Shown here: piece by piece, positions 2,754 to 23,845 of the stretch
Numbering within the stretch: position 1 is the stretch's first letter
How the letters are laid out: each line of letters begins with the position of its first letter
Assembly: GCA_048886685.1 (NCBI GenBank)
Contig: JBHLKM010000010.1
Location: 1 to 23,845, forward strand
DNA from: Candidatus Hodarchaeota archaeon
GTDB taxonomy: Archaea > Asgardarchaeota > Lokiarchaeia > Sigyniarchaeales > SOKP01
Direction: 5' to 3'
Length of the DNA: 23,845 bases
The notes under the pieces: model-generated
Databases searched by the model: none
Told to the model about the DNA's origin: nothing
The model's input: only the letters and a program-made list of their open reading frames with translations
Position numbers and translations under genes: made by a program

Positions 2754-4373
2754 TTAAGATTTAATTTTCTTCCTTAGTTTTATGACTGTAAGAATAATAG
2801 GCATAGCAGTAAATAATAGAAATAGATTTCCAAAAGGAATTGCAGCCTCTCCACCGTCTTGAATTTCTTGAATTTCTCCTATTTGAATGCGGATATAATC
2901 TGAGGGTGTATCTCCATCTTCACTGTGAGCTACAGCAATAAAGTACCTATATCCATTAATTTGACTCATATTAACCGCAAAAGGTATTGTGGCATTTTTG
3001 TATGCCAAACATATTAAATCTTCACTTAGTCCTGAAATAGTATTTTCAGAGTAGTATATTGAAAAATTGTTAGCTTCAACAGATTCGGACCAAATAAGGT
3101 CAAAAAGACCATCATCGTCATAATTCGGTGGGTGATATTTGCCATCTAATTCTGACCAATGGGGGAAAAGAATTCCCTCATTATCAACATTAGAAGTTAA
3201 TGCAAATTCAGTTTTGTTATCATTATGTTTATCAAAAAAATTCAACGCATTGTGAATATCTTTACTATAAAATGTATGATATCCACCAGAAATCAAGATA
3301 CTACTTGTTATTGTTGAGTTCCTAAAACTATAGTTTTCAGGTATTGCTTCATAAATGGGATCAGTAGAAGTAATGTTAGGATATATATAGCCAAATTCGT
3401 CAATAATATGAGCATCCCTAAGAGCATCGTATATTTCACTAGAATTTTCGTACGAAATATCATTGATATAACTAAATTGTTTTGGATGAACAGGAGTAGG
3501 TTGATTCATGTATAATTCTGCAAATGCTCCATTTGAAATGTAATATAGATAATTATTCCACGCAGAAGGATTTATATTTGGGAAATGATCATTTACCGCT
3601 AGATTCCAGTATGTTGGAATTAAATAATTTTGCATAAGGAAGCTAATCCCCCCAGCACAAAAAATTGCTTGCGCAGAGAAATTGAAAAATATTGATGCAC
3701 GGCTTATGAAAGCACCTCCATTAGACAGACCTAATCCGAACAATGGACAATTACTTCTAATTATTCCTCGATTTGTAAAATTTAATAATATATAATTTAT
3801 ATTTTGTATATCAGTGTTATTTTCTAGAATACTATTTGGGTCCCATTGTGCTTCTTCATCACGATCAAGACTTTCAAAAGCAATAAACCCATATTCTCGC
3901 AGGACTATACGATTCATGAAATTAAAAGTTTCAGTTCTATTTTCACTTACCCAGTTTACTGAGCTTCCTCCTCTTCCATGAAATATAAAAACAATTCCTT
4001 TATAATTGGAAGGTAGATAATAATAAACTTCTGTTCCATTAAATATTTCAAAACTAACATTTGTTTTAATATCCCACTTACTAAGGCAAGGTTTATATGT
4101 TGCATTAATTTGAGAAGAGGTTTTAGGAGGTTCCATCCTTGTGTGGAAAGAATTTATATCATCTATTAGATCATTATCACCAACCCATTGATCAAAAATC
4201 ATCCCCTCTGGTGGAGGATTCGCCCAAATATCGACCATTCCATTTGATAGAAGGTTATCATTGTAGAACCCTTCATTTATCTCTAAATTTGGTATAGCAG
4301 CACGGATTTGTGGTATAAGAAAACAACTAAATATTAATAGTATTAAAGCCAGTACTTTTTTTATGAATTTCAT
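2754..4373 (-). CDS. Secreted, membrane-anchored alpha/beta-hydrolase (esterase-like) with Loki-CTERM-like tail
   Basis: 539 aa. Signal peptide MKFIKKVLALILLIFSCFLIP, oxyanion motif FHGRGG, nucleophile elbow GLSNGG, candidate Asp (AVNDH) and His (GGYHTF). C-terminus is IPFG, a hydrophobic helix, then KLRKKIK. Confidence 0.7.
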   Translation of the reverse strand: MKFIKKVLALILLIFSCFLIPQIRAAIPNLEINEGFYNDNLLSNGMVDIWANPPPEGMIFDQWVGDNDLIDDINSFHTRMEPPKTSSQINATYKPCLSKWDIKTNVSFEIFNGTEVYYYLPSNYKGIVFIFHGRGGSSVNWVSENRTETFNFMNRIVLREYGFIAFESLDRDEEAQWDPNSILENNTDIQNINYILLNFTNRGIIRSNCPLFGLGLSNGGAFISRASIFFNFSAQAIFCAGGISFLMQNYLIPTYWNLAVNDHFPNINPSAWNNYLYYISNGAFAELYMNQPTPVHPKQFSYINDISYENSSEIYDALRDAHIIDEFGYIYPNITSTDPIYEAIPENYSFRNSTITSSILISGGYHTFYSKDIHNALNFFDKHNDNKTEFALTSNVDNEGILFPHWSELDGKYHPPNYDDDGLFDLIWSESVEANNFSIYYSENTISGLSEDLICLAYKNATIPFAVNMSQINGYRYFIAVAHSEDGDTPSDYIRIQIGEIQEIQDGGEAAIPFGNLFLLFTAMPIILTVIKLRKKIKS

Positions 4374-4499: not shown

Positions 4500-4623
4500 C
4501 AGAATTTTAGATTATGATAGAAAATTGCCATAAATGTAATGAATAACAATTAAAATTAAATAAAATATATTGTGATATTGATCAATGTTTTAGTTTTCAA
4601 CATATTATAAAAAAAAGTAAATC
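4500..4623 (+). promoter_or_regulatory. Upstream/promoter region of sulfatase A, homologous to 8316-8445; contains palindrome ATTGATCAAT (4577-4586)
   Basis: Shares collinear blocks with the region upstream of sulfatase C: AATTTTAGATTAT, TAATGAATAACAA, ATTAAATAA, ATATTGATCAwTGTT, TAGTTTT, ATAAAAAAAAGT and AAATCATG. Confidence 0.6.
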
Positions 4624-6075
4624 ATGTCAGAAAAACCTAATATAATCTATATTTTTTCTGATCAACACCGCGGTGATACATTGGGGTGTGTTGGTCATCC
4701 TGCAGTACTTACCCCTAACTTAGATAAATTAGCATCTGAGGGAGTTAACTTTACCAGATGTTACACGAATTCCCCTGTTTGCATGCCTGCAAGAGCCTCC
4801 ATGATGACGGGTCAGTATGTTTGTGAACATGGAATCTGGACTAATAATAATGAGGCAGATCCCCTAGGCCCAAGTCATGTCAGAAACATTCGGGATGCGG
4901 GATATCATACCGCTGTTATTGGCAAAACTCATCTTTATCTTCATGGGGCAGGTTGGAAAGATACTAGAAACAATATTGATATCTTGAAAAATTGGGGTTT
5001 TGAAGACATCCATGAATTAACAGGACCTTTAGCAACTTTCAGACATGATTGTTCTTATACTGATTACCTCAAAGAAAAGGGATTATTGAAGACCCATAGA
5101 GATTACCTTATGAATCATGGGATACCCTCAGCTAGAGGGACTGCAAAGCCCTGGGATGATCCGCCTAGCCCTCTACCCACTGAAGCACATTTAGATAGCT
5201 ATACTGGACGCACTGCGATGGAATGGATTCAAAATTATAATGGTGATAAACCATTTTACTTACAAGTTCTATTTCCCGGGCCTCATAATCCCTTTGATTC
5301 TCCTCAAGAATATAGAGATATGTACAAACCTGAAGAAATGCCAATAGGAATAATGGATTGGCCAGAAAGACCTATAGCTAGATATGTGAGAGGAGTATTG
5401 CGTTGGAGTGGGCTTAAAGGTATGACTCCCATACAAAAACAAACTTTGCAAACCTATTATTATGCTAAGATTACCTTGATTGATGATTACATTGGAAGGA
5501 TAGTAAAAGTACTAGAAGAAAAGGGATTATTTGATAATACATGGATAATCTATAATTCAGATCATGGAGAAATGCTGGGAGATCATATGATGAGCCATAA
5601 GGTAGTTTTTTATGAAGGAGCAATACGTGTTCCTCTAATTATAAGACCACCAGGCCATGTTCAAGGTTGGCAGTGTAAAGGATTGACAGATCATCTAGAT
5701 ATAACAGCATCTCTGATAGATATTGCACAGGCTGAAACCCTTCCTGGAAGTGATGGTCGGTCACTTGTTCCTCAAGTTTTAAGTGGTCCTGATGATATTG
5801 AAGCCCAAAAAGGAAAAGAAGCAATATTTAGTGAGGTTTATGGCTTTAGCATGGTTTTTAATGGAAGATATAAAATGGCTATTAATCCTATAACTCGGGA
5901 ACCGGTTGAATTGTACGATCTTAAAGAAGATCCCAATGAGTTAAAAAATATTGTGAATGTCGCTGCCTATGAATCTGTACGTCAAGAATTATTAGATGAC
6001 CACTTGGAGAAATTACTTAGTCGTCTAGATCATGAAAAATTTGAGAATATCAATTATGGTAGATTGATTGAATAA
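4624..6075 (+). CDS. Sulfatase-like hydrolase, Cys-type (paralogue A)
   Basis: 483 aa. Motifs FSDQHRGD, VCMPARASMMTG (CxPxR), GKTH, PHNP, SDHGEMLGDH and ELYDLKEDPNE. No signal peptide. Confidence 0.92.
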   Translation: MSEKPNIIYIFSDQHRGDTLGCVGHPAVLTPNLDKLASEGVNFTRCYTNSPVCMPARASMMTGQYVCEHGIWTNNNEADPLGPSHVRNIRDAGYHTAVIGKTHLYLHGAGWKDTRNNIDILKNWGFEDIHELTGPLATFRHDCSYTDYLKEKGLLKTHRDYLMNHGIPSARGTAKPWDDPPSPLPTEAHLDSYTGRTAMEWIQNYNGDKPFYLQVLFPGPHNPFDSPQEYRDMYKPEEMPIGIMDWPERPIARYVRGVLRWSGLKGMTPIQKQTLQTYYYAKITLIDDYIGRIVKVLEEKGLFDNTWIIYNSDHGEMLGDHMMSHKVVFYEGAIRVPLIIRPPGHVQGWQCKGLTDHLDITASLIDIAQAETLPGSDGRSLVPQVLSGPDDIEAQKGKEAIFSEVYGFSMVFNGRYKMAINPITREPVELYDLKEDPNELKNIVNVAAYESVRQELLDDHLEKLLSRLDHEKFENINYGRLIE

Positions 6076-6153
6076 TCTAAGCGAAAAAGAAATTGAAGAG
6101 AATCCATGATAAGACTCTCGATTTTCTTTAATAAATTCTTTTGTTGACTGTTG

Positions 6154-6249
6154 ATGACTTTTTCAAATTTAGTCTGGAATGCTCAGGTAATGAAAGTTCT
6201 AATTGAATGGATGTTAGAAGGATTAAGAATAAGCCAAGAAATTAAATAA
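6154..6249 (+). other. Possible 31-aa small ORF or gene remnant (MTFSNLVWNAQVMKVLIEWMLEGLRISQEIK)
   Basis: Open frame from ATG 6154 to TAA 6249, in a spacer segment that looks more coding-like than other intergenic DNA here. No recognisable family. Confidence 0.2.
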
Positions 6250-6313
6250 AACTAATAATTAGTAGTATAAGACTATAAACAAATAAAATTAAAAGATAAA
6301 TAAGGTAAGTATT

Positions 6314-7210
6314 ATGAAATTATTACGTACACCAGACGAAAGATTTGAAAATCTTCCGGATTTTCCTTATGAACCAAATTATTTAATGGTTGATGAAATA
6401 CGAATACACTATATAGATGAAGGGCCAAAAGATACAGAAGTTGTTTTATTAATGCACGGAGAACCCTCATGGAGCTTCTTATATAGACATATGATTCCTA
6501 TTATAGTAGAAGCAGGATATCGGGTCGTTGCACCGGATTTAGTCGGATTTGGGCGTTCTGATAAACCTACAGAGAAAGAGGACCACACTTATGCAAAGCA
6601 CGTTAAATGGATTACTAAGTTTGTTACATCGCTTGATCTTAAAAGAATAACCCTCTTTGGTCAAGATTGGGGAGCTCTGATAGGTTTAAGAGTTGCAATT
6701 GAAAATCAAGAGCGATTCAGTCGAATAGTTTTGGCAAATGGAGGACTACCTACAGGCGATCGGGAAAAGACTCAAGCATTCTTGGCTTGGAGGAAATTTT
6801 CAAGAGAATCTCCCAAATTTGACGTAGGACGGTTAATTAATGGAGCAACAACCACTAAGCTAACAGAAGAAATACAATGGGGATATGATGCACCTTTTCC
6901 TGATGACACATATAAAGCAGGAGCACGAATTATGCCTTCATTAGTAACGATTAGTACTGATGACCCAGAACATAAAGCTAATAAAGAAGCGCGTGAGAAA
7001 TTTGGAAAGTGGGAAAAACCGTTTCTTACTGCGTTTTCAGACATGGATCCAGTCACTCGTGGAGGTGATAGATTTTGGCAAACGCATGTTCCGGGGGCAA
7101 AGGGGCAGAAACATACAACTATTGAAAATGCTGGTCATTTTCTACAGGAAGATAAAGGCCCAGAAATAGCAAATCTCATTGTTAAGTTTATAAAAGAAAA
7201 TCCTATTTAA
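6314..7210 (+). CDS. dhmA: Haloalkane dehalogenase (HLD-I, DhlA/DhmA-like)
   Basis: 298 aa. Motifs LRTPDERF, HGEPSWSFLYR, PDLVGFGRSDKP, nucleophile QDWG, acid SDMDP and base GHFLQEDKG. Confidence 0.9.
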   Translation: MKLLRTPDERFENLPDFPYEPNYLMVDEIRIHYIDEGPKDTEVVLLMHGEPSWSFLYRHMIPIIVEAGYRVVAPDLVGFGRSDKPTEKEDHTYAKHVKWITKFVTSLDLKRITLFGQDWGALIGLRVAIENQERFSRIVLANGGLPTGDREKTQAFLAWRKFSRESPKFDVGRLINGATTTKLTEEIQWGYDAPFPDDTYKAGARIMPSLVTISTDDPEHKANKEAREKFGKWEKPFLTAFSDMDPVTRGGDRFWQTHVPGAKGQKHTTIENAGHFLQEDKGPEIANLIVKFIKENPI

Positions 7211-7224
7211 CTTTAATTTTTTTT
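7211..7224 (+). terminator. Oligo-T tract, putative archaeal-type terminator after the dehalogenase
   Basis: CTTTAATTTTTTTT directly follows the stop codon. Confidence 0.4.
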
Positions 7225-7226
7225 CC

Positions 7227-7409
7227 TTATCTTCGTCTGAATCTCCAATCAGTCTCAAAAGGTACTACATCGCAAGTTTCCAAATACCACGTAAGCATTT
7301 TCTCTTTCATATTGAACAGTATATCCATGTATTTAGAATCATCAATAACATTAATTATTTCTTCGGGATCACTATTCAAATCATATAATTCATCTTCTTC
7401 ATAAAGACG
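7227..7409 (-). pseudogene. C-terminal remnant of a sulfatase (different subfamily from A-D)
   Basis: Not in the ORF track. Manual translation: RLYEEDELYDLNSDPEEIINVIDDSKYMDILFNMKEKMLTWYLETCDVVPFETDWRFRRR*. It has the sulfatase C-terminal motif ELYDLxxDPxExxN. An in-frame TAA (7412-7410) lies immediately upstream, and no catalytic domain is present. Confidence 0.8.
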
Positions 7410-7442
7410 TTAAAGAAAGATAGATAAAAAGCAAAAATAATT

Positions 7443-8198
7443 TGGCCAGAAGAACCTACATCTATATATGTTAAGATGGTTCTACGATGGAGTGGTCTCT
7501 ATGACATGACACCCGAACAGAAACAAATGTTAAGTACTTATTACTATGCCAAGATCACATTGATTGACGACTATATTGGAAGGATATTGAACGTATTAGA
7601 AGAAAAGGGCTTATTAGATAATACATGGATAATCTATAATTCTGATCATGGAGAAATGCTTGGAGATCATATGATGAGCCATAAAATAGTATTTTATGAT
7701 GGACCTGTACGTATACCTCTTATTATAAGACCACCAGGTGGTGCTAAAGGTTGGCAGTGTAAAGGATTAACAGATCATCTCGATATAGCCGCATCTCTTA
7801 TAGACATTGCACAGGCTGAAACGTTATCTGGGAGTGATGGTCGCTCACTTATCCCTCAAGTTCTAAATGGACCTAATAACCCAGAAGCGCAAAAAGGAAA
7901 AGAAGTCATCTTTAGTGAAGTTTACGGTTATAGTATGGTTTTTGATGGAAGATATAAAATGGCAATTAATCCTATAACTCGAACACCAGTTGAATTTTAT
8001 GATCTTAAAGAAGACCCTGATGAATTAAAAAATCTTGTAGATGACTATGCTTATGAATCTATTCGTAAAGAATTACTCCATAAACATTTTGGTAGGCTGC
8101 TTAAACATTTAGACAAAAAAAAATTTGAAAATATGAATGTTGGTAGTCGTAGACGACAAATCGAAAAAGAACTTGAAAAGGAACAAGAAGTAACTTAA
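7443..8198 (+). pseudogene. 5'-truncated sulfatase (paralogue B), C-terminal half only
   Basis: Homology to A and C starts at WPEEPTSIYVK (7443), upstream of the ATG at 7476. In-frame TAA at 7425. About 250 N-terminal residues, including CxPxR, are missing. The remaining frame is uninterrupted. Confidence 0.85.
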
Positions 8199-8315
8199 TT
8201 TTTATCACATTTTAAACTAAAATAATTATATTTTGAGATACTATTCTATGATAAAATTGTAAAGAAAAAATTATCTATCAACTATGAGCTCTCTTAACCG
8301 GAACAAAAATACTAA

Positions 8316-8445
8316 AATTTTAGATTATACTACAGGAAAAAGTGTTATAAATACTATTAATGAATAACAAATAACATTAAATAACATATACTAATATTGA
8401 TCATTGTTCTAGTTTTTATCATATCATAAAAAAAAGTCTTAAATC
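8316..8445 (+). promoter_or_regulatory. Upstream/promoter region of sulfatase C: candidate BRE/TATA (GGAAAAAGTG-TTATAAATA, ~8335-8353) and ATTGATCATTGTT box (8396-8408)
   Basis: Collinear homologue of 4500-4623. A purine run is followed by TTATAAAT, as in archaeal promoters. Confidence 0.55.
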
Positions 8446-9948
8446 ATGGCAGAACAACCTAATATTATTTATATTTTTTCTGATCAACACCGTGGAGATA
8501 CTTTGGGGAGTGTTGGTCATCCTGCAGTAATTACTCCTAATTTAGATAAATTAGCGTCTGAAGGAGTTAACTTTACCAGATGTTATACGAATTCCCCTCT
8601 TTGTATGCCCGCAAGAGCTTCCATGATGACAGGTCAGTATGTTTGTGAACATGGAATCTGGACCAATAACAATGAGGCAGATCCCTTGGAGTGCCCAAGT
8701 CACGTACGCAATATTCGCGATGCTGGTTATCACACGGCTGTTATCGGAAAAACACATCTTTACCGTCATGGAGGGAGAACATTAACGTGGAAAGATACAA
8801 GAGAAAAGACTCAAGTGTTAAAAGATTGGGGTTTTGAAGACATCCATGAATTGACAGGACCTCTTGCAACGCGTAGGCATGATTCCCCATATACTGATTA
8901 TCTCAAAGAAAGGGGATTATTGAAAATTCATAGAGATTACATCTTCAAATATGCAAGGGAATGGACAAGAGGGACAGCAAAACCCTGGGAAGAACCTCCA
9001 TGTCCGCTTCCTGCTGAGGATCATCTTGATAGTTATACAGGACGTAAAACAGTTGAATGGATTCAAAATTATAATGGTAATAAACCATTTTATTTACAAG
9101 TCTTATTTCCAGGACCTCACGATCCCTTTGACTCACCTCAGGAATATAGAGATATGTATAACCCAGAAAAGATGCCTATTGGAATTATGGATTGGCCACA
9201 AAAACCCGTAGCTCGCTATGTGAGAATGGTGTTGCATTGGAGTGGACTTAAAGGTATGACTCCTGCTCAAAAACAAATCCTAAGAACTTATTACTACGCC
9301 AAAATCACATTGATTGATGAATATATCGGCAGAATCATGAAGACCCTTGAAGAGAAAGGTCTATTGGAAAATACGTGGGTAATCTATAATTCTGATCATG
9401 GCGAGATGCTGGGAGACCATATGATGAGCCATAAGATTGTATTTTATGAAGGAGCCTTACGCATTCCTTTAATTATTAGACCGCCTGGTGGAATGAAGGG
9501 GTGGAAGTGTGAGGATTTAACCGATCATCTTGATATTGCTGCTACCTTGATAGATATTGCAGGAGCTAAGCCACTTAAAGGGAGTGATGGAATTTCTCTA
9601 GTCCCAAAAGTATTAAAGGGACCAAATGATTCTGAAGCCCAAAAAGTAAAAGAAGTCATCTTTAGTGAAGTTTATGGTTTTTCAATGGTCCGGAACGAAC
9701 AGTATAAGATGGCTATTGTTCCAGATACCCAAAGACCAGTTGAATTATATGACTTAGAAAAAGACCCAAATGAATTAATAAATCTAGTAAGAGATCCCAG
9801 CCTTGAATCAGTCCGTCAGGAATTATTAAATAATCATCTAAGTAAACTGCTTGATCATTTAGATATGAAAAAGTTAAAAAATATGAATGTTGACGGTCTT
9901 AGTCGGCAAATAGAAAAAGAAATTGAGAAAGAACAAAAAGTAATTTAA
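8446..9948 (+). CDS. Sulfatase-like hydrolase, Cys-type (paralogue C)
   Basis: 500 aa. Motifs SDQHRGD, LCMPARASMMTG, GKTH, PHDP and SDHGEMLGDH. Confidence 0.92.
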   Translation: MAEQPNIIYIFSDQHRGDTLGSVGHPAVITPNLDKLASEGVNFTRCYTNSPLCMPARASMMTGQYVCEHGIWTNNNEADPLECPSHVRNIRDAGYHTAVIGKTHLYRHGGRTLTWKDTREKTQVLKDWGFEDIHELTGPLATRRHDSPYTDYLKERGLLKIHRDYIFKYAREWTRGTAKPWEEPPCPLPAEDHLDSYTGRKTVEWIQNYNGNKPFYLQVLFPGPHDPFDSPQEYRDMYNPEKMPIGIMDWPQKPVARYVRMVLHWSGLKGMTPAQKQILRTYYYAKITLIDEYIGRIMKTLEEKGLLENTWVIYNSDHGEMLGDHMMSHKIVFYEGALRIPLIIRPPGGMKGWKCEDLTDHLDIAATLIDIAGAKPLKGSDGISLVPKVLKGPNDSEAQKVKEVIFSEVYGFSMVRNEQYKMAIVPDTQRPVELYDLEKDPNELINLVRDPSLESVRQELLNNHLSKLLDHLDMKKLKNMNVDGLSRQIEKEIEKEQKVI

Positions 9949-9982
9949 TTGCCAAATAGATAAAAAAACGTTTTCATCAATT

Positions 9983-10678
9983 ATGAGTTCTACGAAAAAT
10001 GACAAAAATAATAATATCGTTAGTAAGAAAAGTAAGAAAATTGAATGGATTTTAGATGCTGCTCAGGAACTTTATGAAAGCGAAGGGCGAGAAAAACTAA
10101 CTTCAGAAGCAGTAGCTGAAAAATTAAATATGTCGTCAAGGGGACATATTTATCATTATTTTAAGAGTAAACGGGAGCTATGGATTGCTCTTAGGGCTCG
10201 GTATTTTCAATATCTTCAAATCGAATTTAACCGAGTTGAAGAAAATCATAAAGGTTCTAATATTGATCTTTTAATTAAATTAATGGAAAAATTTTTGGAT
10301 TTCTCTGCTTCTAATCGAAGAAGATTTCGTCTTATGTTTTTGATGCAACCACCTCCATCGAAAGTATTAGGTCCTTATGAATCAGGGATGAACGTTATTC
10401 GACCCTTTCATTTATTAGATTTTGTAGAAAGAATTGTAGAAAAAGCAATAGATCAAGGGGAAATATATAAGTATAACTCCTTCATGTTAACAGCTTTTCT
10501 AAATCAAATCACCTTGGGAACAGCCATAATCAACCATGGTTTTAGTCGATTCCCCTCAACTGGCAACTCCCCATCAGAATTTGAAAAAGTAGTAACAGAA
10601 CATAAGGAGTTTATTAGAGAAAATCGAGAATTTTCCTTAAATCAACTCCGAAAGTTTATAAACATGATGAAAAAGTAA
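9983..10678 (+). CDS. TetR/AcrR family transcriptional regulator
   Basis: 231 aa. N-terminal HTH ILDAAQELYESEGREKLTSEAVAEKLNMSSRGHIYHYFKSKRELW. Starts 34 bp after sulfatase C. Confidence 0.9.
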   Translation: MSSTKNDKNNNIVSKKSKKIEWILDAAQELYESEGREKLTSEAVAEKLNMSSRGHIYHYFKSKRELWIALRARYFQYLQIEFNRVEENHKGSNIDLLIKLMEKFLDFSASNRRRFRLMFLMQPPPSKVLGPYESGMNVIRPFHLLDFVERIVEKAIDQGEIYKYNSFMLTAFLNQITLGTAIINHGFSRFPSTGNSPSEFEKVVTEHKEFIRENREFSLNQLRKFINMMKK

Positions 10679-10688
10679 AAAAAAAAAA
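10677..10688 (-). terminator. T12 tract on the minus strand, putative terminator of the convergent minus-strand gene
   Basis: A12 run on the + strand between converging stop codons (10678 and 10735). Confidence 0.4.
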
Positions 10689-10734
10689 TAATTATTTTAT
10701 AATCTTTACTCTAGCAACTATATATGCTTTCTTG

Positions 10735-12108
10735 TTATAATCTTAGATCTAATCGAGGTTCACGGAGTTCTGGAGATAAATTATAGTCATACATAAATTT
10801 TACAAAATGTTGGTGAAGCTCTTTAGCAATTTCTGGATGTTCATCAATCACGTTATTTTCCTGCTTTGGATCAGATGGAATATGATATAACCAGGTTAAT
10901 CCTGGTTCTGTACTGTAAAGTAGAGTCCACTCATCTGTGGTTACTGTGGTATCTGACCCCATCAGGGCAATTCTTTCCCTTCCATCAACTGATCGAATCT
11001 TAGTTTTCAAGTTCATAATAGGATGTGTACTGATTGTGTGGTCTCTTACTCTAAAGTTCGTATCTTTCATCATTGGCAAAATTGATTTACCTTCTACGCT
11101 CTCCGGTATGCGTTCATCTAGAATATCCAGTATAGTCGGCATCAGATCAACTGCTGAAGTAATTCCATCGGAAATACTTGGTTCCACTCCCGGCATATAG
11201 ATAAAAAGTGGACAGGCTGTAAGCTCTTCAAAGAGTGGAGATCGGGTCCAAGCCCGTTTTGGTGAACCAATGGGTTCATCTGTGTAGGGAATCGAACTAG
11301 GATAAGCCCTAGTTAGCTTTCCGAACAAACCGTTGTGTTCACCGAAATAGAAACCATGATCTGTGGTAAAAATGATAGTTGTCTTATCCATGAGGTTCAT
11401 ATTCTCGACTCTTTTGATAAAGTGACCAATCCAGGCGTCTACCATTGTACACTCACCACAGTAACATGCATGTGCTTTTTTCACTTTTTCCTCAGTCATT
11501 CCAGGGACATCTTGCCAGTGCGCATAGACAGGATTGACTTCCTCACCATCATAATCTGGCCAGTATAGTTCCGTGTAATAATCAGGGGCATCCCAGGGTT
11601 CGTGGGGATCCCATGCATCTATATACAAAAAAAAGTCTTCTTTATAGTGTAACTCAAGCCACTCCATCGCCTTGGAGAATGTCTTCGGTGCAAATCTGTC
11701 TTCCTCAAAACGCCAAGATTTACGCTCATCTCCGAGCGTACGATAACCGTACAACTGTCCCGGTATCTCCATCCAACCTTGAAAGCCTCTGTCATAGCCA
11801 AAACCAAATCTTGTATAAAATGGTGTATCTACAACCGCAGCTGTTGTATAACCTTTGTTAGTAAGTATTTGTGGTAAACTTACTAGATTTCTTGCTAGTG
11901 GTTCCCATCTCATAAAACAGGCAGTCCAGCGACCAGTAAAAAAATCTGCTCGGGCGGGCATAGTTGGGAAACCCGCAGCGTAATGACGATTAAACTGCAC
12001 AGATTTTTTAGCCAGAGAATCCAGAGCTGGTGTACAGATGGATTTATTACCGTAACAACCCAGATGGTCTTTTCGAAAGGTGTCAGATATTATCCAAATA
12101 ACGTTCAT
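10735..12108 (-). CDS. Sulfatase-fold (alkaline phosphatase superfamily) hydrolase with Thr at the catalytic position (TxPxR)
   Basis: 457 aa. Motifs ISDTFRKDHLGCYG, FPTMPARADFFTGR, WDPHEPWD and TTDHGFYFGEH. AGGAGAAGG lies upstream of the ATG. Confidence 0.85.
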   Translation of the reverse strand: MNVIWIISDTFRKDHLGCYGNKSICTPALDSLAKKSVQFNRHYAAGFPTMPARADFFTGRWTACFMRWEPLARNLVSLPQILTNKGYTTAAVVDTPFYTRFGFGYDRGFQGWMEIPGQLYGYRTLGDERKSWRFEEDRFAPKTFSKAMEWLELHYKEDFFLYIDAWDPHEPWDAPDYYTELYWPDYDGEEVNPVYAHWQDVPGMTEEKVKKAHACYCGECTMVDAWIGHFIKRVENMNLMDKTTIIFTTDHGFYFGEHNGLFGKLTRAYPSSIPYTDEPIGSPKRAWTRSPLFEELTACPLFIYMPGVEPSISDGITSAVDLMPTILDILDERIPESVEGKSILPMMKDTNFRVRDHTISTHPIMNLKTKIRSVDGRERIALMGSDTTVTTDEWTLLYSTEPGLTWLYHIPSDPKQENNVIDEHPEIAKELHQHFVKFMYDYNLSPELREPRLDLRL

Positions 12109-12168
12109 TTTCCTTCTCCTATTTATGTATCAATATTTATATTTATAAAATTGAGGGAGTATGTATAC

Positions 12169-12996
12169 CTAAGCTTCGCTACCACCATCAACAACAATGA
12201 CTTGACCAGTGATATAACTTGATGCGTCTGATGCAAGAAAGAGAGCTACATTAGCAATTTCATCTGGCTCAGCAAATCTTCCTAGTGGAATATGGTAGCC
12301 TATTTTTTTCATCAGTTCAGGATTTTCCCATAGAAATCGGATCATTTCCGTTCTTATCCCTCCTGGCGCTATGGCATTAACCCGGATACCATACTGACCC
12401 AATCCCCAAGCCATGCCACGCGTTAACATATTAACCCCTGCTTTGGATATAAAATAAACCCTAGAAGCGAAAGGATGTACCTCTGGTCGTAATGGAAGAG
12501 GATCTTGGAATAATGACCTTCTAATACCCGGTCTAATCCTCAAGCTATCAATCGAAGATATATTAATTATATTGCCCGATTTTCTTTCAATCATTCCCTT
12601 AGCTGCCGCATGGGAACATAGATAACAGCTCTTCAAATTAATATTCATTTGTTTATCCCACTGTCGCTCTGGCGGTTCGTCAGCAAAAGCTCCAGCCCAT
12701 ACAGCAGCATTATTTACCAGAATGTCAATTCGACCAAATTCTTTCTCTACTTTTTGAACAAGAGAATTTACTTGGTCTTTTTGACTAACGTCAGTCTGAT
12801 TAAAGAGAGAACGCCTACCAAGTTTCCTGATCTTTTCAGCCACCCCATCCAACTCCCCTGTATCAACGATCCAATCACATATGGCAACGTCAGCTCCAGC
12901 TTCAGCAAATGTTAATGCTGTGGCTTCACCCACACCTCGTCTTGAACCAGTAACTAGAGCCACTTTACCTTCTAATGACATTGTAATTACTCGCAT
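12169..12996 (-). CDS. Short-chain dehydrogenase/reductase (classical SDR, probably NAD-preferring)
   Basis: 275 aa. TGSRRGVG, Asp after beta2 (AICD), NNAA, YFISK (YxxxK), RVNAIAPG and YITGQVIVVDGG. The start may instead be Met6 (12981). Confidence 0.92.
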   Translation of the reverse strand: MRVITMSLEGKVALVTGSRRGVGEATALTFAEAGADVAICDWIVDTGELDGVAEKIRKLGRRSLFNQTDVSQKDQVNSLVQKVEKEFGRIDILVNNAAVWAGAFADEPPERQWDKQMNINLKSCYLCSHAAAKGMIERKSGNIINISSIDSLRIRPGIRRSLFQDPLPLRPEVHPFASRVYFISKAGVNMLTRGMAWGLGQYGIRVNAIAPGGIRTEMIRFLWENPELMKKIGYHIPLGRFAEPDEIANVALFLASDASSYITGQVIVVDGGSEA

Positions 12997-13033
12997 ATTT
13001 ATACTTGACCCCTATTTAACACTCCTATGAAAC

Positions 13034-13068
13034 AAAACATTGTTGATTGATTCAATTTTCAATGTTTT
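13034..13068. promoter_or_regulatory. 35-bp imperfect palindrome, candidate operator upstream of the SDR
   Basis: AAAACATTG-ttg-ATTGA-T-TCAAT-ttt-CAATGTTTT. 14 of 17 pairs are symmetric about 13051. It lies 38 bp upstream of the SDR start. Confidence 0.55.
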
Positions 13069-13156
13069 TATTATTTAATCATTGTTCCTTTTCTTATTAA
13101 AGATTTTGATCAATGCTCAAATTTTTTTATGAATTGAAAAAAGAGAGGAAGTTATT

Positions 13157-14596
13157 TTATAATTTAATCTCTTCAAATTTTCTCTGATATAGTTTACTCA
13201 TTAAAGAATTTAGGTGTTTTCTTAGTAATTCCTTACGAATACTTTCTAACAATGGATCTTTCACTAAATTAACTAATTCATCTGGATCTTTTTCGAGGTC
13301 GAATAATTCTACTGGTTTTCCTGAGTTACTTTTAATTGTCATCTTATATCGTTCATCACGCACCATTGAGAATCTATATACTTCACTAAAAACAGCATCT
13401 TTTGCCTTTTGAGCCTTAGGGTCATTTGGTCCCTTCAATATTTTTGATACAAGAGAAACTCCATCACTTCCTTTAAGTGGCTTAGCTCCCGCAATATCTA
13501 TTAAGGTAACAGCAATATCAAGATGATCGGTTAAACCCTCACACTTCCACCCCTTCATTCCGCCAGATGGCCTAATAATTAAAGGAATACATAATGCTCC
13601 TTCATAAAATACTATCTTATGTCTCATCATATGGTCTCCCAGCATCTCGCCATGATCAGAATTATAAATTACCCACGTATTTTCTAATAGACCTTTTTCT
13701 TCGAGAGCTTTCATGATTCTCCCTATGTATTCATCAATTAAAGTGATTTTCCCGTAATAATTAATCCTCATTTGCTTACATTGCTCAGGAGTCATATCTT
13801 GAATAGCACTCCAATTTTGTACCATCCTTACGTACCAGGGAGTTGGCTTTTGAGGAAATTTCATAATACCCTCAGGAATCTCTTCTAATTTGTACATATC
13901 TCTATATTCCTGAGGTGAGTCAAAGGGATCGTGAGGTCCTGGAAATAAGACTTGTAAGTAAAATGGTTTATCATCATTATAATTTTGAATCCATTCAACT
14001 GTTTTACGTCCTGTATAACTATCTAAATGTGCTTCAGTGGGTAGGGGGCTATGCGGATCATCCCAGGGTTTTGCTGTCCCTCTAGCTGAGGGTAAACCAT
14101 GATTCATGATGTAATCTCTATGGATTTTCAATAATCCCTTTTCTTTGAGATAATCAGTATAAGAACAATCATGTCTGAAAGTTGCTAAAGGTCCCGTTAA
14201 TTCGTGGATATCAACAAAACCCCAATTTTTCAAGATATTAATATTGTCTCTAGTATCTTTCCAACCTGCCCCATGACGATAAAGGTGAGTTTTTCCAACC
14301 ACAGCCGTGTGATATCCCGCATCTCGAATATTGCGTACATGACTTGGACACTCTAATGGATTTGCCTCATTATTATTGGTCCAGATTCCATGTTCACAAA
14401 CATACTGTCCAGTCATCATTGATGCCCTCGCAGGCATACAAAGTGGGGAATTAGTATAACATCTGGTAAAGTTAACACCCTCAGACGCTAATTTATCTAA
14501 GTTGGGCGTAATTATTGCAGGATGACCAACACTCCCCAAAGTATCACCACGGTGTTGATCAGAAAAAATATAAATTATATTCGGTTGTTCTGCCAT
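13157..14596 (-). CDS. Sulfatase-like hydrolase, Cys-type (paralogue D)
   Basis: 479 aa. Motifs SDQHRGD, LCMPARASMMTG, GKTH, PHDP and SDHGEMLGDH. Starts 30 bp after the MBL sulfatase stop. Confidence 0.92.
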   Translation of the reverse strand: MAEQPNIIYIFSDQHRGDTLGSVGHPAIITPNLDKLASEGVNFTRCYTNSPLCMPARASMMTGQYVCEHGIWTNNNEANPLECPSHVRNIRDAGYHTAVVGKTHLYRHGAGWKDTRDNINILKNWGFVDIHELTGPLATFRHDCSYTDYLKEKGLLKIHRDYIMNHGLPSARGTAKPWDDPHSPLPTEAHLDSYTGRKTVEWIQNYNDDKPFYLQVLFPGPHDPFDSPQEYRDMYKLEEIPEGIMKFPQKPTPWYVRMVQNWSAIQDMTPEQCKQMRINYYGKITLIDEYIGRIMKALEEKGLLENTWVIYNSDHGEMLGDHMMRHKIVFYEGALCIPLIIRPSGGMKGWKCEGLTDHLDIAVTLIDIAGAKPLKGSDGVSLVSKILKGPNDPKAQKAKDAVFSEVYRFSMVRDERYKMTIKSNSGKPVELFDLEKDPDELVNLVKDPLLESIRKELLRKHLNSLMSKLYQRKFEEIKL

Positions 14597-14626: not shown

Positions 14627-15889
14627 TTAAGAATCATATTTTATTCCCTTTGAGGCAAGAAATTCTTTATCTTTTTTGATATAATAAACCCAAGCATTTC
14701 GAGACATAAGGCAATAATCATGAGAACCCAACTCTTTTAGAAGTTGTATTCTTAATTTTCTAGCTTCTATATGTTTAGGATTTCCCTGAATTAAGACGTC
14801 TAAGACTTGAAGACTGAGTTGTGTCTGACCATTTTTAAAAAGTTCTTTTGCTCTAGTTATAATTTTGTCATTATCACCAATCAAATTAAATATTTCATTA
14901 TTTACCTCTCTTTCTGGTCTTGGCAATAGGTGTGCAGGATTATCATCAAAATAGCCATGATACCATCGATAAACATTGTAGACGAAAAATTCTGGTCTAG
15001 AATAACGTAATTTAAGATAAGGACTATTTTTAAGATGTTCTGGAATTTTTACAGCATGGATCATCTCTGAAATATGCATACCTTGATTAATATATTCTAC
15101 AACTTGATCATGTAGAGAACGGATAACCTCAATATTTGTATCTAAAGCTTTTTTTGCTCTATTTCCTCGAAGCATCATACCGGCACCATTAAAAAATAAA
15201 TAATCTATATTCTTCGATCTGATTTCTTCCAATGTTTTTGCCCAATCTAAAGCAAAACGTGCAGGCTTCCAAGGATTTCCTATATTTGGAAAACTTCCTA
15301 TAAGTAAGTCCCCGATAAACGCCGCATTGAGTTGGGGAACATAAACCCAACAGATATCATCAGTTTCTCCTCGAGCTGTGTGAAGTTCGAAAGATTTATC
15401 TCCAAGAGATATGGTCATTTCACCCAAAAAGGTTTTTGTAGGATATATATAGTTTCCAATATTGACTCTTTCCGGAATATTAAATTGTTGGGCCAAAAAT
15501 CGCGCACGATGACGTGCTAGTGTTTTAAACCTATCCAATCGAGCTGGTAAATATTTATTCGCTATTATTTCTGGATTATCTGCTATAAAAGCTCTTGCAC
15601 CTCCCACGTGATCGTTATGACCATGAGTATATATAATATATTCAATTTTCCCCGCGATTCTTTTAAAAACCTCTTTTCCTATTGCTTCCGAGCCCATAGT
15701 ATCAATTAATACAAGACCATCACCAGTTTCAATCCAAGCACAACCTGAAATAGGGAGAGCCGCAGTATGAACGTCCTTTAGAGGTTCCTTAAAGATAATA
15801 TTATTTTGGTTCCATAAAAGCGGTGTTCCTTTTAATTCTTCACTATTAGGATTTTTTACCTCATTTAATTTTTCTGGCATATTATTCAT
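14627..15889 (-). CDS. Alkyl/aryl sulfatase, metallo-beta-lactamase fold (SdsA1/BDS1-like) with dimerisation domain
   Basis: 420 aa. Motifs LIDT, THGHNDHVGG (HxHxDH), GETDD, GDL, FPNIGNP and YRWYHGYFDDNPAHL. It appears to lack the C-terminal SCP2-like domain of SdsA1. Confidence 0.85.
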   Translation of the reverse strand: MNNMPEKLNEVKNPNSEELKGTPLLWNQNNIIFKEPLKDVHTAALPISGCAWIETGDGLVLIDTMGSEAIGKEVFKRIAGKIEYIIYTHGHNDHVGGARAFIADNPEIIANKYLPARLDRFKTLARHRARFLAQQFNIPERVNIGNYIYPTKTFLGEMTISLGDKSFELHTARGETDDICWVYVPQLNAAFIGDLLIGSFPNIGNPWKPARFALDWAKTLEEIRSKNIDYLFFNGAGMMLRGNRAKKALDTNIEVIRSLHDQVVEYINQGMHISEMIHAVKIPEHLKNSPYLKLRYSRPEFFVYNVYRWYHGYFDDNPAHLLPRPEREVNNEIFNLIGDNDKIITRAKELFKNGQTQLSLQVLDVLIQGNPKHIEARKLRIQLLKELGSHDYCLMSRNAWVYYIKKDKEFLASKGIKYDS

Positions 15890-20557: not shown

Positions 20558-22510
20558 ATGTTTTTCACAATGATGCAGAATAATTATGCAGCTAATTACG
20601 GTATGCTTTTAATTGAATCTATCTTTGAGATTATATTTTTAATTTTTATCACTAATTTTTTAAATCGGTTCGCAATTCCAGAAGATAATCAAGAATTTGA
20701 AATCAAAAATAGAAAAATATTACAGGTATCACTTCTAAGTTCTTTAATTTCCTTTGGAATAATTTTTACAATAAGACTAATTTTTGGATTTTATTGGTTA
20801 TTTGATTATGGATTATGGCGTATAGAAATTTTTTTTGCTGGAATGATAAGCATATATTTTCTAATTTTTATCCTTTTTTTGACAAAAATGGTACCTCAAT
20901 TTAAAGAAAATATTTTTTTTCATAAAAGACTTTTCAGAATCTATATAATCTGTATTGGAGTTTCGTGGTTTGTAGGGTTTGTTTTTCTTTCAATTGATTT
21001 ATTGGAAATTCCAATGAATTGGGACCCTATGAATACGCAATATGACGTATTTCTACTCGGATTTATTTGGGCTTTTTTCACAGTTCTATTTGACATTTCT
21101 ATCTTATATTTAGTTAATAACCTAATACCCATTGAAAAAAAGCTCCCAAAATATGTTTTCAGGAAATCATCTAATGTCGCTAGTATTATCGCATTTAGCA
21201 TTTGGTCTATTCAACTTATTATTTTTGAATTATATCTCAAAAGATTATCTGATCTCTCGGTATGGAAGCAAGATATTCGTGTATTATTTCTTTTGGTTAC
21301 AGCTATTTATCTTGTTTCTTTTTTTCTTTTTTTAAAATATAAATACTTACCAGAGAGTGCTCAAAAAAGTGGTGCAAGGTTTCAAGCCGCGCTAAAATTA
21401 TATGAAGAAAAACAATTGAAGGTTAAAACACTGAAAGCAAATAATGTGATTTTAGATGTTCGTGACCTAATAACTTATTTTTATACAGAAGAAGGGATTG
21501 TTCGGGCTTTAGAAGGAGTTTCTTTTAAGATTTATAAAGGTGAGGTGCTTGGCCTTGTAGGTGAAACTGGATGCGGAAAATCGGTTACTGCTTTATCAAT
21601 TCTACAATTAATTCGACCTCCCGGAAGAATTGAGAAAGGAGAGATTTTATTTGAGGATGAAAATTTACTCGAAAAATCTAAGTCTGAAATTTTAAAATAT
21701 CGTGGGAATAAGATTACTATGATTTTTCAAGATCCACTTAATTCCCTAAATCCCGTTTATAAAATAGGAGATCAAATTACTGAAGTCTATCATCTTCATA
21801 AGGAAGATGATTTACTAGTTGAAGCATCAAAACATTCAAATGAAAGTGTATTTAGTATTGCTCGTAAATGGGGTGAAAAACTCTTACATGATGTTGGTAT
21901 CGCAGCTCCTGAAAAAATTTTTGATCAATACCCCCATGAATTAAGCGGAGGTATGCGCCAAAGAGTCCAAATTGCCATGGCACTGGCTTGTGAACCTAGG
22001 CTTCTAATAGCGGATGAACCTACGACCGCATTAGATGTCACTATTCAAAATCAAATACTAAAATTAATGAAGGATCTTAGAGAAATTTACGATACAGCAA
22101 TTCTATTTATAACTCATGACCTTAGAGTAATCTCAAAAATGTGTGATCGTGTTGCTGTTATGTATAGTGGTTTTATAGTTGAATATGGTGATATTCACAA
22201 AATATTCAAAAGTCCATACCATCCCTATACTAGGGGACTTATAACAGCTTTACCTGTAATAGGAACAAAAAAGAGAAGACTACAAACCATTACAGGAATA
22301 GTACCTAATTTAATTTATCCACCTTCAGGATGTCGTTTCCACCCGCGTTGTGAGTACTGTTTCGAACCTTGCGATAAAGAAGTTCCAAATACTATAGAAG
22401 TAGATGAAAATTATTATGTTGCATGTCATCTTTATAACCCTGAATACAAGCATCTCGCTGAGATCGTGGTAAGAAAATCGGAGAGTGAAAATAAATCCCA
22501 AATTAGATAA
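20558..22510 (+). CDS. dppD: Peptide-family ABC ATPase (DppD/OppD-like) fused to an N-terminal ~7-TM domain
   Basis: Walker [10 protein letters not shown]-loop [13 protein letters not shown], Walker B LIADEPT, H-loop ITHD, HPYT and a Cys-rich tail. The first ~260 aa are hydrophobic. Confidence 0.9.
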
Positions 22511-22538: not shown

Positions 22539-23845
22539 ATGTTATTTCAAGATTATAATCCAATGGCTACATCTATTATGATGTTGGTGCTAATTAGTTT
22601 TGTACTTTTAGGTATTTCCATATTTATTATATATTTGAGCAATAAATTGCAAATTGTAAATTATAAGGGATTATTATCTCTTGTCAATTTTACGCCAAGC
22701 TTTCTTTTTTTAATTATTCTTTTTCTAATACAAAAAGAAATATTCTCTTCTTTTTTTATATTATCCTTTCTCATTGCATTAATAATTTTAATTATCAGTA
22801 GTATTCTATTAAAGAGATATATTTTTAAGAAAATTGAATTTCCACCTATGGATAAATTCCATCGTCACGAAAAAGGAAAGTTTTTACTCCAGATTAATGA
22901 TTTGAAAGTCTACTACCCTCTCCTTAAGGGGATGCTTAAAAGACAAGTTGGAGTAGTAAAAGCTGTTGATGGAATTTCTTTTGAAATAAAAACAGGTGAA
23001 ACTGTTGGATTGGTAGGCGAAAGTGGTTGTGGAAAAACGACTGTAGCGAAAGCGATATTAGGATTTGTCGATATAGAGAATGGAAAAATCCGATATGGCG
23101 ATAAAGACATTCCTAGAACTTATCCAAGAGAATTAAGACGAAAAGTTCAGATCGTCTTTCAAGATCCTGATGCTTCACTAAACCCGCGTATGAAAGTGGT
23201 TAACATTATTGCAGAATCCCTTAAGAACTTAATGGGCATTACAGATAAAACAGAAGTTAGAAAACTCGTCTTAAAGTTAATGGATGAGGTGTCTTTGAAA
23301 CGAGAACATATGGATCGCTATCCTCACGAATTTTCAGGAGGACAGAAACAAAGAATAGTTATAGCAAGAGCACTAGCGTGTAATCCAGAATTGATTATCT
23401 TGGACGAACCAACCTCGGCTCTTGATGTATCTGTTCAAGCACAAATCCTTAATTTACTCAAAGATTTACAAGAAGATTATGGGTATGGTTTTCTTTTTAT
23501 CACTCACGATTTATCAGTGGTAAATCATATTGCTGATCGTGTTGCGGTTATGTATCTTGGTAAATTTGTTGAGTTGGGAAGTACTGAGCAAATATTTTCC
23601 AATCCTGTTCACCCTTACACACGAGCACTTTTATCTTCTCGAGCTGAATTTGATCCAGATGATCAAGAGATTAGATTTGTGATCCATGGTGAGGTTCCAA
23701 GTCCTATAAATCCTCCTTCAGGTTGTGCCTTTAATCCACGGTGTACTGCTGAAACAAGGACAAAAGAATGTGAAAATCTCTTTCCTCATAAAATGGAAAT
23801 TGAAGAAGGGCACTATATCTGGTGTTGTAGTGAAATGTTAAGTAA
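22539..23845 (+). CDS. dppF: Peptide-family ABC ATPase (DppF/OppF-like) fused to an N-terminal ~3-TM domain; stop codon beyond window
   Basis: Not in the ORF track because it has no stop in the window. Manual translation begins MLFQDYNPMATSIMMLVLISFVLLGISIFIIYL and continues through VKAVDGISF, GESGCGKT, VFQDP, FSGGQKQR, LDEPT, ITHD, HPYT and GCAFNPRC to HYIWCCSEMLS. Confidence 0.9.
   Translation, partial: MLFQDYNPMATSIMMLVLISFVLLGISIFIIYLSNKLQIVNYKGLLSLVNFTPSFLFLIILFLIQKEIFSSFFILSFLIALIILIISSILLKRYIFKKIEFPPMDKFHRHEKGKFLLQINDLKVYYPLLKGMLKRQVGVVKAVDGISFEIKTGETVGLVGESGCGKTTVAKAILGFVDIENGKIRYGDKDIPRTYPRELRRKVQIVFQDPDASLNPRMKVVNIIAESLKNLMGITDKTEVRKLVLKLMDEVSLKREHMDRYPHEFSGGQKQRIVIARALACNPELIILDEPTSALDVSVQAQILNLLKDLQEDYGYGFLFITHDLSVVNHIADRVAVMYLGKFVELGSTEQIFSNPVHPYTRALLSSRAEFDPDDQEIRFVIHGEVPSPINPPSGCAFNPRCTAETRTKECENLFPHKMEIEEGHYIWCCSEMLS

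Follow-up and report, generated by a model that had tools for sequence, protein, structure and literature searches.

The window analysed here comprises 23,845 nucleotides (nt) and forms the start of contig C10 (JBHLKM010000010.1) of a metagenome-assembled genome (MAG) of Candidatus Hodarchaeota archaeon (GCA_048886685.1; 4.4 Mb in 47 contigs), a member of the Lokiarchaeia within the Asgard archaea. It carries a catabolic locus that runs from a gene for a sulfatase of 755 amino acids (aa) through paralogue A, a haloalkane dehalogenase gene, paralogue B, paralogue C and a TetR gene to a further sulfatase-fold gene, an SDR gene, paralogue D, an alkyl-sulfatase-like gene and an oligopeptide-type ABC transporter. 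Its close homologues mostly carry the label Promethearchaeota. We focus on the sulfatase paralogues A to D, which the initial annotation described as four combinatorial mosaics of each other. A, C and D are full-length, with 75-80% protein identity, and no single tree fits the three of them, third codon positions included. B does not belong in this set as a complete gene, since it is a 5'-truncated half. In the numbering of C, six blocks were distinguished: block 1 (codons 1-108), block 2 (109-197), block 3 (198-238), block 4 (239-285), block 5 (286-392) and block 6 (393-470). The paralogues and the segments that matter for the mosaic are located as follows:

4624..6075, plus strand: paralogue A, a Cys-type S1 sulfatase-family hydrolase of 483 aa, with an alpha block 2, an A/C-like block 4 and a B-like 3' part.
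4945..5202, plus strand: block 2 of A (alpha allele, common to D), holding the 44-nt tract 5023-5066.
7443..8198 (open frame; first ATG at 7476), plus strand: B, the remnant of a 5'-truncated paralogue, without the CxPxR nucleophile motif.
8446..9948, plus strand: paralogue C, 500 aa, with a gamma block 2, the state of distant homologues.
9037..9159, plus strand: block 3 of C, 97% identical in nt to D after recent homogenisation (65-nt tract 9094-9158, 49-nt tract 9028-9076).
9301..9621, plus strand: block 5 of C, the DHG...HK catalytic core, homogenised with D (C+D clade, ultrafast bootstrap (UFBoot) 98).
13157..14596, minus strand: paralogue D, 479 aa, inverted relative to C and carrying Arg411; its block 2 is alpha, blocks 3 and 5 resemble C, and blocks 4 and 6 are unique to D.
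13893..13957, minus strand: the 65-nt tract of D, an exact match to C 9094-9158.
14015..14272, minus strand: block 2 of D (alpha allele), holding the 44-nt tract 14151-14194.

C is the paralogue most similar to the single-copy gene found at this locus in relatives. B consists of the 3' half only; its open frame begins behind an inverted remnant of another sulfatase gene, and its counterpart in another MAG (L030) is frameshifted. Two more paralogues lie on C10 outside the window, namely E (35596-34103, 68% identity) and a partial F behind an N gap. The family is patchily distributed, with close members in 3 of 23 other genomes of the genus.

A, C and D belong to a single Cys-type S1 sulfatase/phosphonate-monoesterase-like family, in which they form old and diverged paralogues. 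All three match the sulfatase domain PF00884 with 172-175 bits and score below the curated cut-off of every named NCBIfam family, including choline sulfatase TIGR03417 (217-230 bits, cut-off 433). No variation occurs among A, C and D in the catalytic residues D13, Q14, C53, P55, R57, K102, H104, H225, D317, H318 and K330, so that the claim of invariant catalytic motifs stands for these three; B lacks the C/S-x-P-x-R motif that the others contain because its N-terminal half is missing. The predicted model of C (mean predicted local distance difference test score, pLDDT, 93.9) adopts an S1/alkaline-phosphatase fold and matches phosphonate monoester hydrolases, arylsulfatases and choline sulfatase (4UPH, 4UPI, 6G5Z, 7OZ8) with Z scores of 38-43 and a root mean square deviation of about 3 Å over about 430 residues, at only 25-32% identity. 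The closest structures include sulfatases as well as phosphonate monoester hydrolases. This group has the same DQ metal ligands and the same CxPxR, GKxH, PH, DHG and HK motifs as A, C and D, but the choline-binding Trp/His hairpin of choline sulfatase is not recognisable in the paralogues. An anaerobic sulfatase maturase is encoded in the genome (TIGR03942 above cut-off, contig C1:170121-171191), and the search for maturation enzymes gave no match to the formylglycine-generating enzyme (FGE) in the genome. The maturase gene adjoins another sulfatase-family gene (G000:C1:170121-173008).

As the initial annotation had noticed, the closest paralogue changes from block to block. A 5023-5066 equals D 14194-14151 over 44 nt and C 9094-9158 equals D 13957-13893 over 65 nt, both exactly; further exact tracts of C and D measure 49 nt (C 9028-9076) and 44 nt. 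In block 2, A resembles D with 93% nt identity (A-C, 73%), compared with 55-73% for A-D in blocks 4-6, and at third positions the A-D identity is 86% in block 2 versus 35-50% in blocks 4-6. Moreover, A and D have a three-residue deletion and about 20 residues in block 2 that are common only to these two. The identity of C and D alternates along the gene, from 74% in block 2 to 97% in block 3, 62% in block 4, 90% in block 5 and 68% in block 6. Counts of informative sites that group AC, AD or CD follow the same pattern: 7/57/9 in codons 109-197, 1/3/17 in 198-238 and 11/12/65 in 286-392. With E as outgroup, 17 sites in block 2 support AD|CE against 2 and 2 for the other two arrangements, and 24 sites in block 5 support CD|AE against 3 and 2.

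Two tests that use no block boundaries show the same conflict. An adjacency permutation is significant with all sites (p=0.0005) and with synonymous sites (p=0.0045), as is the pairwise homoplasy index (PHI) on A, C, D and E (p=0.0005 with all sites, 0.003 with third positions). In approximately unbiased (AU) tests with ten taxa, a C+D clade is rejected in block 2 (p<0.001 for all sites and for third positions), and an A+D clade is rejected in block 3 (p=0.005), block 5 (p<0.001) and block 6 (p=0.004), at third positions with p=0.026, 0.004 and 0.019, respectively. Monophyly by type in block 5 gives p=0.019 for all sites and 0.15 for third positions. Hence, the refuting outcome named in the initial annotation, a single topology at synonymous sites, did not appear, and the proposal of gene conversion or ectopic recombination is supported.

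Other parts of the block-by-block description need to be toned down. Block 1, where C had been said to resemble D, is nearly homogenised among A, C and D (87-90% nt identity), and the preference for C+D is marginal (15/13/23 sites for AC/AD/CD). In block 4, D alone is divergent and forms a long branch; AU rejects no grouping, and a separate A-C swap, which we considered for this block, is not needed. The pairing of A+B against C+D in the 3' part is real (44:0:3 in codons 291-392); it is compatible with the underlying gene tree. The tail of B does resemble that of C (80% nt identity).

The block combinations recur in other genomes. A-type genes with the same combination of blocks 2, 4 and 6 are present in three other assemblies (L023, L031, L026), C-type genes in L030 and L028, with more distant single copies in L024 and L027, and a D-type gene in L029. 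MAG GCA_048938685.1 carries a C-type gene (C1) and a D-type gene (D1). In the quartet of C, C1, D and D1, 146 of the 147 informative sites in blocks 2, 4 and 6 group the genes by type and the remaining one crosswise, with no site grouping by genome. Only 2 of 23 sites in blocks 3 and 5 group by type, against 15 by genome and 6 crosswise. Same-genome paralogues are closer than orthologues in both of these blocks: C-D identity is 97% in block 3 (C-C1, 89%; D-D1, 90%) and 90% in block 5 (C-C1, 86%; D-D1, 85%). Blocks 1, 3 and 5 are conserved throughout the family and hold the catalytic motifs, with a modal residue frequency of 0.76-0.81 versus 0.62-0.63 in the variable blocks. Orthologues nevertheless differ more at synonymous third positions in the conserved than in the variable blocks (C-C1, 22.6% vs 8.6%, p=8e-5; D-D1, 27.2% vs 13.1%, p=4e-4; A-A2, 17.5% vs 5.4%, p=6e-5); the A-A1 comparison has the same direction and is not significant. 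The adjacent TetR orthologues show 5.6% synonymous differences.

Because the conserved blocks group by genome and the synonymous divergence of orthologues is higher there, recent exchange must have altered mainly the conserved scaffold, for the most part at silent sites, whereas variable blocks are passed on with the gene type. This largely reverses the emphasis of the initial annotation, which had counted the most variable segments among the swapped blocks; that view holds for block 2, where the swap is older. Ongoing combinatorial shuffling in this genome is not borne out, given that the combinations of A, C and D are the same in other genomes. For orthology inference, the most conserved parts of these genes are the least reliable signal, since orthologues are two to three times more diverged at silent sites there. 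Same-genome paralogues elsewhere have exact tracts of their own, of 67 nt in L026 and 42 nt in C1/D1. Of 248 paralogous alignments across the source genome (G000) with a length of >=600 nt and 68-92% identity, 34 include an exact run of >=40 nt, the longest being 492 nt on contig C20; many of these are tandem repeats. Near the sulfatase locus, a tandem pair of TPR-like proteins (L001:3165-6961, C10:25166-28962) shows a similar patchy pattern, with 79% identity overall, patches of up to 93% and an exact run of 43 nt.

One older swap of a variable block, that of codons ~109-197 common to A and D, is well supported. The contrast in A-D third-position identity given above argues that the alpha block 2 moved between backbones, and since D1 has it too, the transfer is older than the split from the C1/D1 genome. 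The alpha block 2 is the derived state: it is found only in A-type genes, D-type genes and one other gene, and the gamma block 2 of C resembles E and distant homologues. Two other contigs yielded further combinations. In L032, a gamma block 2 is followed by a 3' part 95-100% identical to A, with the switch near codon 225-235, and a minus-strand gene in L069 combines an alpha-like block 2 and a block 3 identical to A with a different block 4. A single C/D inversion at the 65-nt tract, swapping the 3' halves, would have explained blocks 2-4 at once; we rejected it because other genomes have both C5'+C3' and D5'+D3' genes, single-copy C-like ones among them.

We consider it likely, with a probability of about 0.8, that ordinary homologous recombination exchanges DNA among these old S1-type sulfatase paralogues without a dedicated recombinase. 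A, C, D and the remnant B would exchange DNA by general homologous recombination between non-allelic copies. Exchange would be initiated near the catalytic motifs, in the conserved segments of codons ~1-108, ~198-238 and ~286-392, which may be the only stretches alike enough for pairing, presumably via RadA. In most cases the outcome would be a short conversion tract, so that the scaffold becomes scrambled and homogenised while few amino acids change. On rare occasions, the exchanged tract, or a crossover, might reach across a variable block from one conserved anchor to the next and create a new combination; one such event, before the split from MAG GCA_048938685.1, would explain why A and D carry the same alpha block 2 on their different backbones. 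Swaps of block 2 might change specificity, and selection might keep the types distinct. The genome contains one tyrosine recombinase, located on contig C2 away from the locus; no resolvase/serine recombinase and no reverse transcriptase were found in the genome, and no recombinase is present among the open reading frames of C10:1-42000. The search for reverse transcriptase gave no PF00078 match in the genome, with its control positive in only 3 of 14 genomes, and the repeats of the window include no template-type repeat. There is no fixed crossover site either, as switch points lie at codons ~100-110 and 197 in D, 225-235 in L032 and 60-80 in A.

Several observations weigh against this interpretation. 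The AU values are optimistic because the blocks were drawn after inspection of the data, and it is the block-free tests, not the AU values, that carry the mosaic claim. A strictly synonymous four-taxon permutation, MaxChi and longest-run tests were not significant, with only 35 sites and low power. Flanking-gene baselines vary, with 17-32% synonymous differences in flanking genes other than the TetR gene. Genome-specific patterns exceed cross patterns by only 21:10 (p=0.035), and exact tracts are not significantly longer within than between genomes (p=0.10). The L032 and L069 combinations are each known from one short contig only, and the placement of block 2 at the substrate pocket is by homology alone.

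The comparison of tract lengths within and between genomes also means that the donor need not sit in the same cell. It is possible, though we favour it considerably less, that donors are mainly paralogues in other cells, with homeologous recombination acting on DNA taken up from related Lokiarchaeia; the conserved blocks would then be patched and the mosaic would reflect a shared gene pool of the population, which is compatible with recombination as proposed above. Cross-genome pairs are among those with the longest exact tracts between different types, with 157 nt between A and the L069 gene, 66 nt between A and C1 and 61 nt between C1 and P2, and codons 16-60 of A are 97% identical to C1 of the other MAG versus 90-91% to C of the same genome. 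The patchy occurrence of the family in the genus points in the same direction. Against a predominance of foreign donors, C and D of this genome have a 97% identical block 3 and form a common clade in block 5, C1 and D1 pair apart from C/D (UFBoot 71), and blocks 3 and 5 hold 15 genome-specific against 6 cross patterns.

Shufflons and diversity-generating retroelements re-assort or rewrite specificity segments on a constant part. An active array of the shufflon kind, continually re-assorting pocket modules under selection for new specificities, would share with shufflons the re-assorted segments and the inverted copies. The alpha block 2 on two backbones, the two further combinations in other contigs, the match of block 2 to the ligand-binding region of choline sulfatase and the precedent of moth sulfatases are in line with such an array. 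In contrast to shufflons and diversity-generating retroelements, however, neither a recombinase nor a reverse transcriptase was found at the locus, crossovers are not fixed to one site, and the sampled population gives no sign of switching: no joints appear in the contigs of four runs, nor alternative alleles in those of the deep runs, although contigs drop rare variants. Furthermore, independent assemblies show the same combinations of A, C and D, exchange has affected the scaffold more than the variable blocks, and the swapped blocks are not fresh because they are 86-93% identical. An active array is therefore improbable.

That the mosaic is an assembly chimera of co-occurring strains or misjoined paralogues is very unlikely. 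The source is a MAG with a contamination estimate of 8.4%, and the 49- and 65-nt C/D tracts are not bridged by any of the listed unitigs, which break at exact repeats. We compared Logan unitigs of runs X1 and X2, both of which may be the source of the assembly, with the window. They show zero differences to it, have an even depth, contain no joints and span A from block 2 through to the end of the gene, codons 65-204 of C and the edges of blocks 3, 4 and 5; the low-share runs X5-X20, of which X5 gave short scattered pieces only, were not counted as evidence. More independent evidence against a chimera is that genes of the A, C and D types recur in other assemblies with their block combinations unchanged; in addition, the shared blocks are 90-97% and not 100% identical. 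Equally remote is a single gene tree without recombination but with region- and lineage-specific rate shifts or convergence, which accounts for block 4, where only D diverges and no topology is rejected, but cannot give the deletion and residues of block 2 restricted to A and D beside the C+D identity in blocks 3 and 5, the conflict at third positions or the higher synonymous divergence of orthologues in the conserved blocks.

A wider reading of recombination between these paralogues is more tentative. Across sediment Lokiarchaeia, the hydrolase family might form a slow combinatorial library, with the conserved catalytic segments as anchors and without a dedicated recombinase. We are similarly doubtful that three specificity blocks (codons ~109-197, codons ~239-285 and the C-terminal part) are re-assorted among genomes into selected enzymes; at least five block combinations have been seen. 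If such a library exists, ectopic conversion would, given the patchy identity of paralogues elsewhere in this genome, be a general means by which Asgard archaea diversify their gene families.

A possible functional role of block swaps is suggested by the structurally related choline sulfatase, in which Tyr123, Trp129, His145 and Asn146 are ligand-binding and gate residues (PMC9063841). GKxH and PH anchors flank these residues just as they flank block 2, and by this homology it is reasonable to suggest that block 2 lines the substrate entrance. Glu386 of choline sulfatase (PMC5870055) aligns near the start of block 6. A change of substrate specificity through block swaps is thus plausible. A, C and D together with the L032 and L069 combinations provide a natural set of chimeras for mapping the segments that set substrate range in this sediment-dwelling branch of the S1 sulfatases.

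Related exchanges have been described elsewhere. In plutellid moths, ectopic gene conversion is reported among the glucosinolate sulfatases GSS1 and GSS3, together with altered activity (bioRxiv 10.64898/2026.10.12.758433). As in the paralogues described here, duplicated formylglycine-type sulfatases swap tracts, conversion is mostly synonymous, genome-specific site patterns exceed cross patterns and a tuning of substrate range has been proposed. The moth case concerns a eukaryote and is backed by enzyme assays; the Asgard case involves at least three types, and its exchanged core blocks alternate clearly with type-specific blocks. Partial concerted evolution of mtrA-1 and mtrA-2 in methanogens (PMC4632066) and conversion of domain 3 in bacterial RF1/RF2 (PMC4530459) likewise homogenise the part with shared function and leave the parts that determine specificity or location distinct. 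These cases involve one domain in two essential genes, whereas here several blocks are interleaved in an accessory catabolic family, with at least one variable-block swap and recurrent gene birth and loss in addition. A survey of concerted evolution in prokaryotic paralogues reports homogenisation of whole genes, with all archaeal cases from methanogens (PMC6053082); its cases resemble those here in that paralogue recombination recurs in separate lineages. Conversion among archaeal chaperonins (Archibald and Roger, 2002, as cited in PMC6053082) belongs to the same context. Conversion of archaeal paralogues is therefore already known. Our literature search, of incomplete coverage, found no report of paralogue recombination in Asgard archaea and no relevant work on Lokiarchaeota sulfatases. 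The present case is well resolved, and better so than most.

The remaining features of the locus accompany particular paralogues or record its rearrangement:

6116..6169, minus strand: short inverted remnant that resembles 10629-10578, in the 3' end of the TetR gene (83.6% over 55 nt).
6314..7210, plus strand: haloalkane dehalogenase-family gene (NF002043, 454 bits, cut-off 265).
7217..7410, minus strand: inverted 3'-terminal remnant of a different sulfatase gene, bordering on the point at which B is truncated.
8316..8437, plus strand: region upstream of C, with a duplicate upstream of A (4503-4618; 78% over 124 nt).
9983..10678, plus strand: TetR-family regulator, linked to C-type genes in relatives.
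14627..15889, minus strand: alkyl-sulfatase-like metallo-beta-lactamase gene upstream of D (PF14863 and PF00753).

The haloalkane dehalogenase-family gene accompanies A-type genes and follows them in L023 and L031. The alkyl-sulfatase-like gene is a conserved member of the locus and lies upstream of the D-type gene in L028 and L029. The remnant at 7217..7410 is 87% identical over 194 nt to contig C2:363572-363765 of G000, the 3' end of a sulfatase match. The locus is unstable, as relatives carry a single C-like gene at this place or other gene orders. In L028:9229-10898, a D-type gene ends at codon 213 and is joined on the same strand to a C-type upstream region, with a 4-nt microhomology (TACT) at the start position of the 65-nt C/D tract (window 13957); this joint may reflect a deletion, a rearrangement or a misassembly. 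The sulfatase-fold protein at 10735-12108 (minus strand) has Thr at the nucleophile position (FPTMPAR instead of CxPxR) and is probably not a formylglycine enzyme.

A second cluster further along C10 (L001:7294-15160, C10:29295-37161) contains five sulfatase-family genes, paralogue E among them. Two flavin-oxidoreductase-like genes in tandem and a CoA-transferase-like pair, identified by eye, come after these. An apparent fusion of an ABC ATPase and sulfatase F (window 22540-23845 and L001:539-2803) crosses the N gap in the scaffold; the two are separate genes in L024. The oligopeptide-type ABC ATPase at 20558-22510 (plus strand) has a long N-terminal membrane region, and the next ATPase has a hydrophobic N-terminus, too; both have the same lengths in L024 and L028. 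A scan for sigma-70 promoters, a model unsuited to archaea, gave chance-level counts.

Genes 97-100% identical in DNA occur in L028, L030 and L029, in MAGs labelled Thorarchaeota and Promethearchaeota, and among the proteins P0133-P0138 there is a near-identical pair labelled Heimdallarchaeota; this conflict of labels might stem from mislabelling, misbinning or recent transfer. Finally, the minus strand at 2754-4373 encodes a 539-aa protein with a signal-like N-terminus and a C-terminal membrane anchor. It has no match in Pfam or NCBIfam, and its gene is missing at this place in L024 and L027. Its GLSNGG motif is suggestive of an alpha/beta hydrolase.

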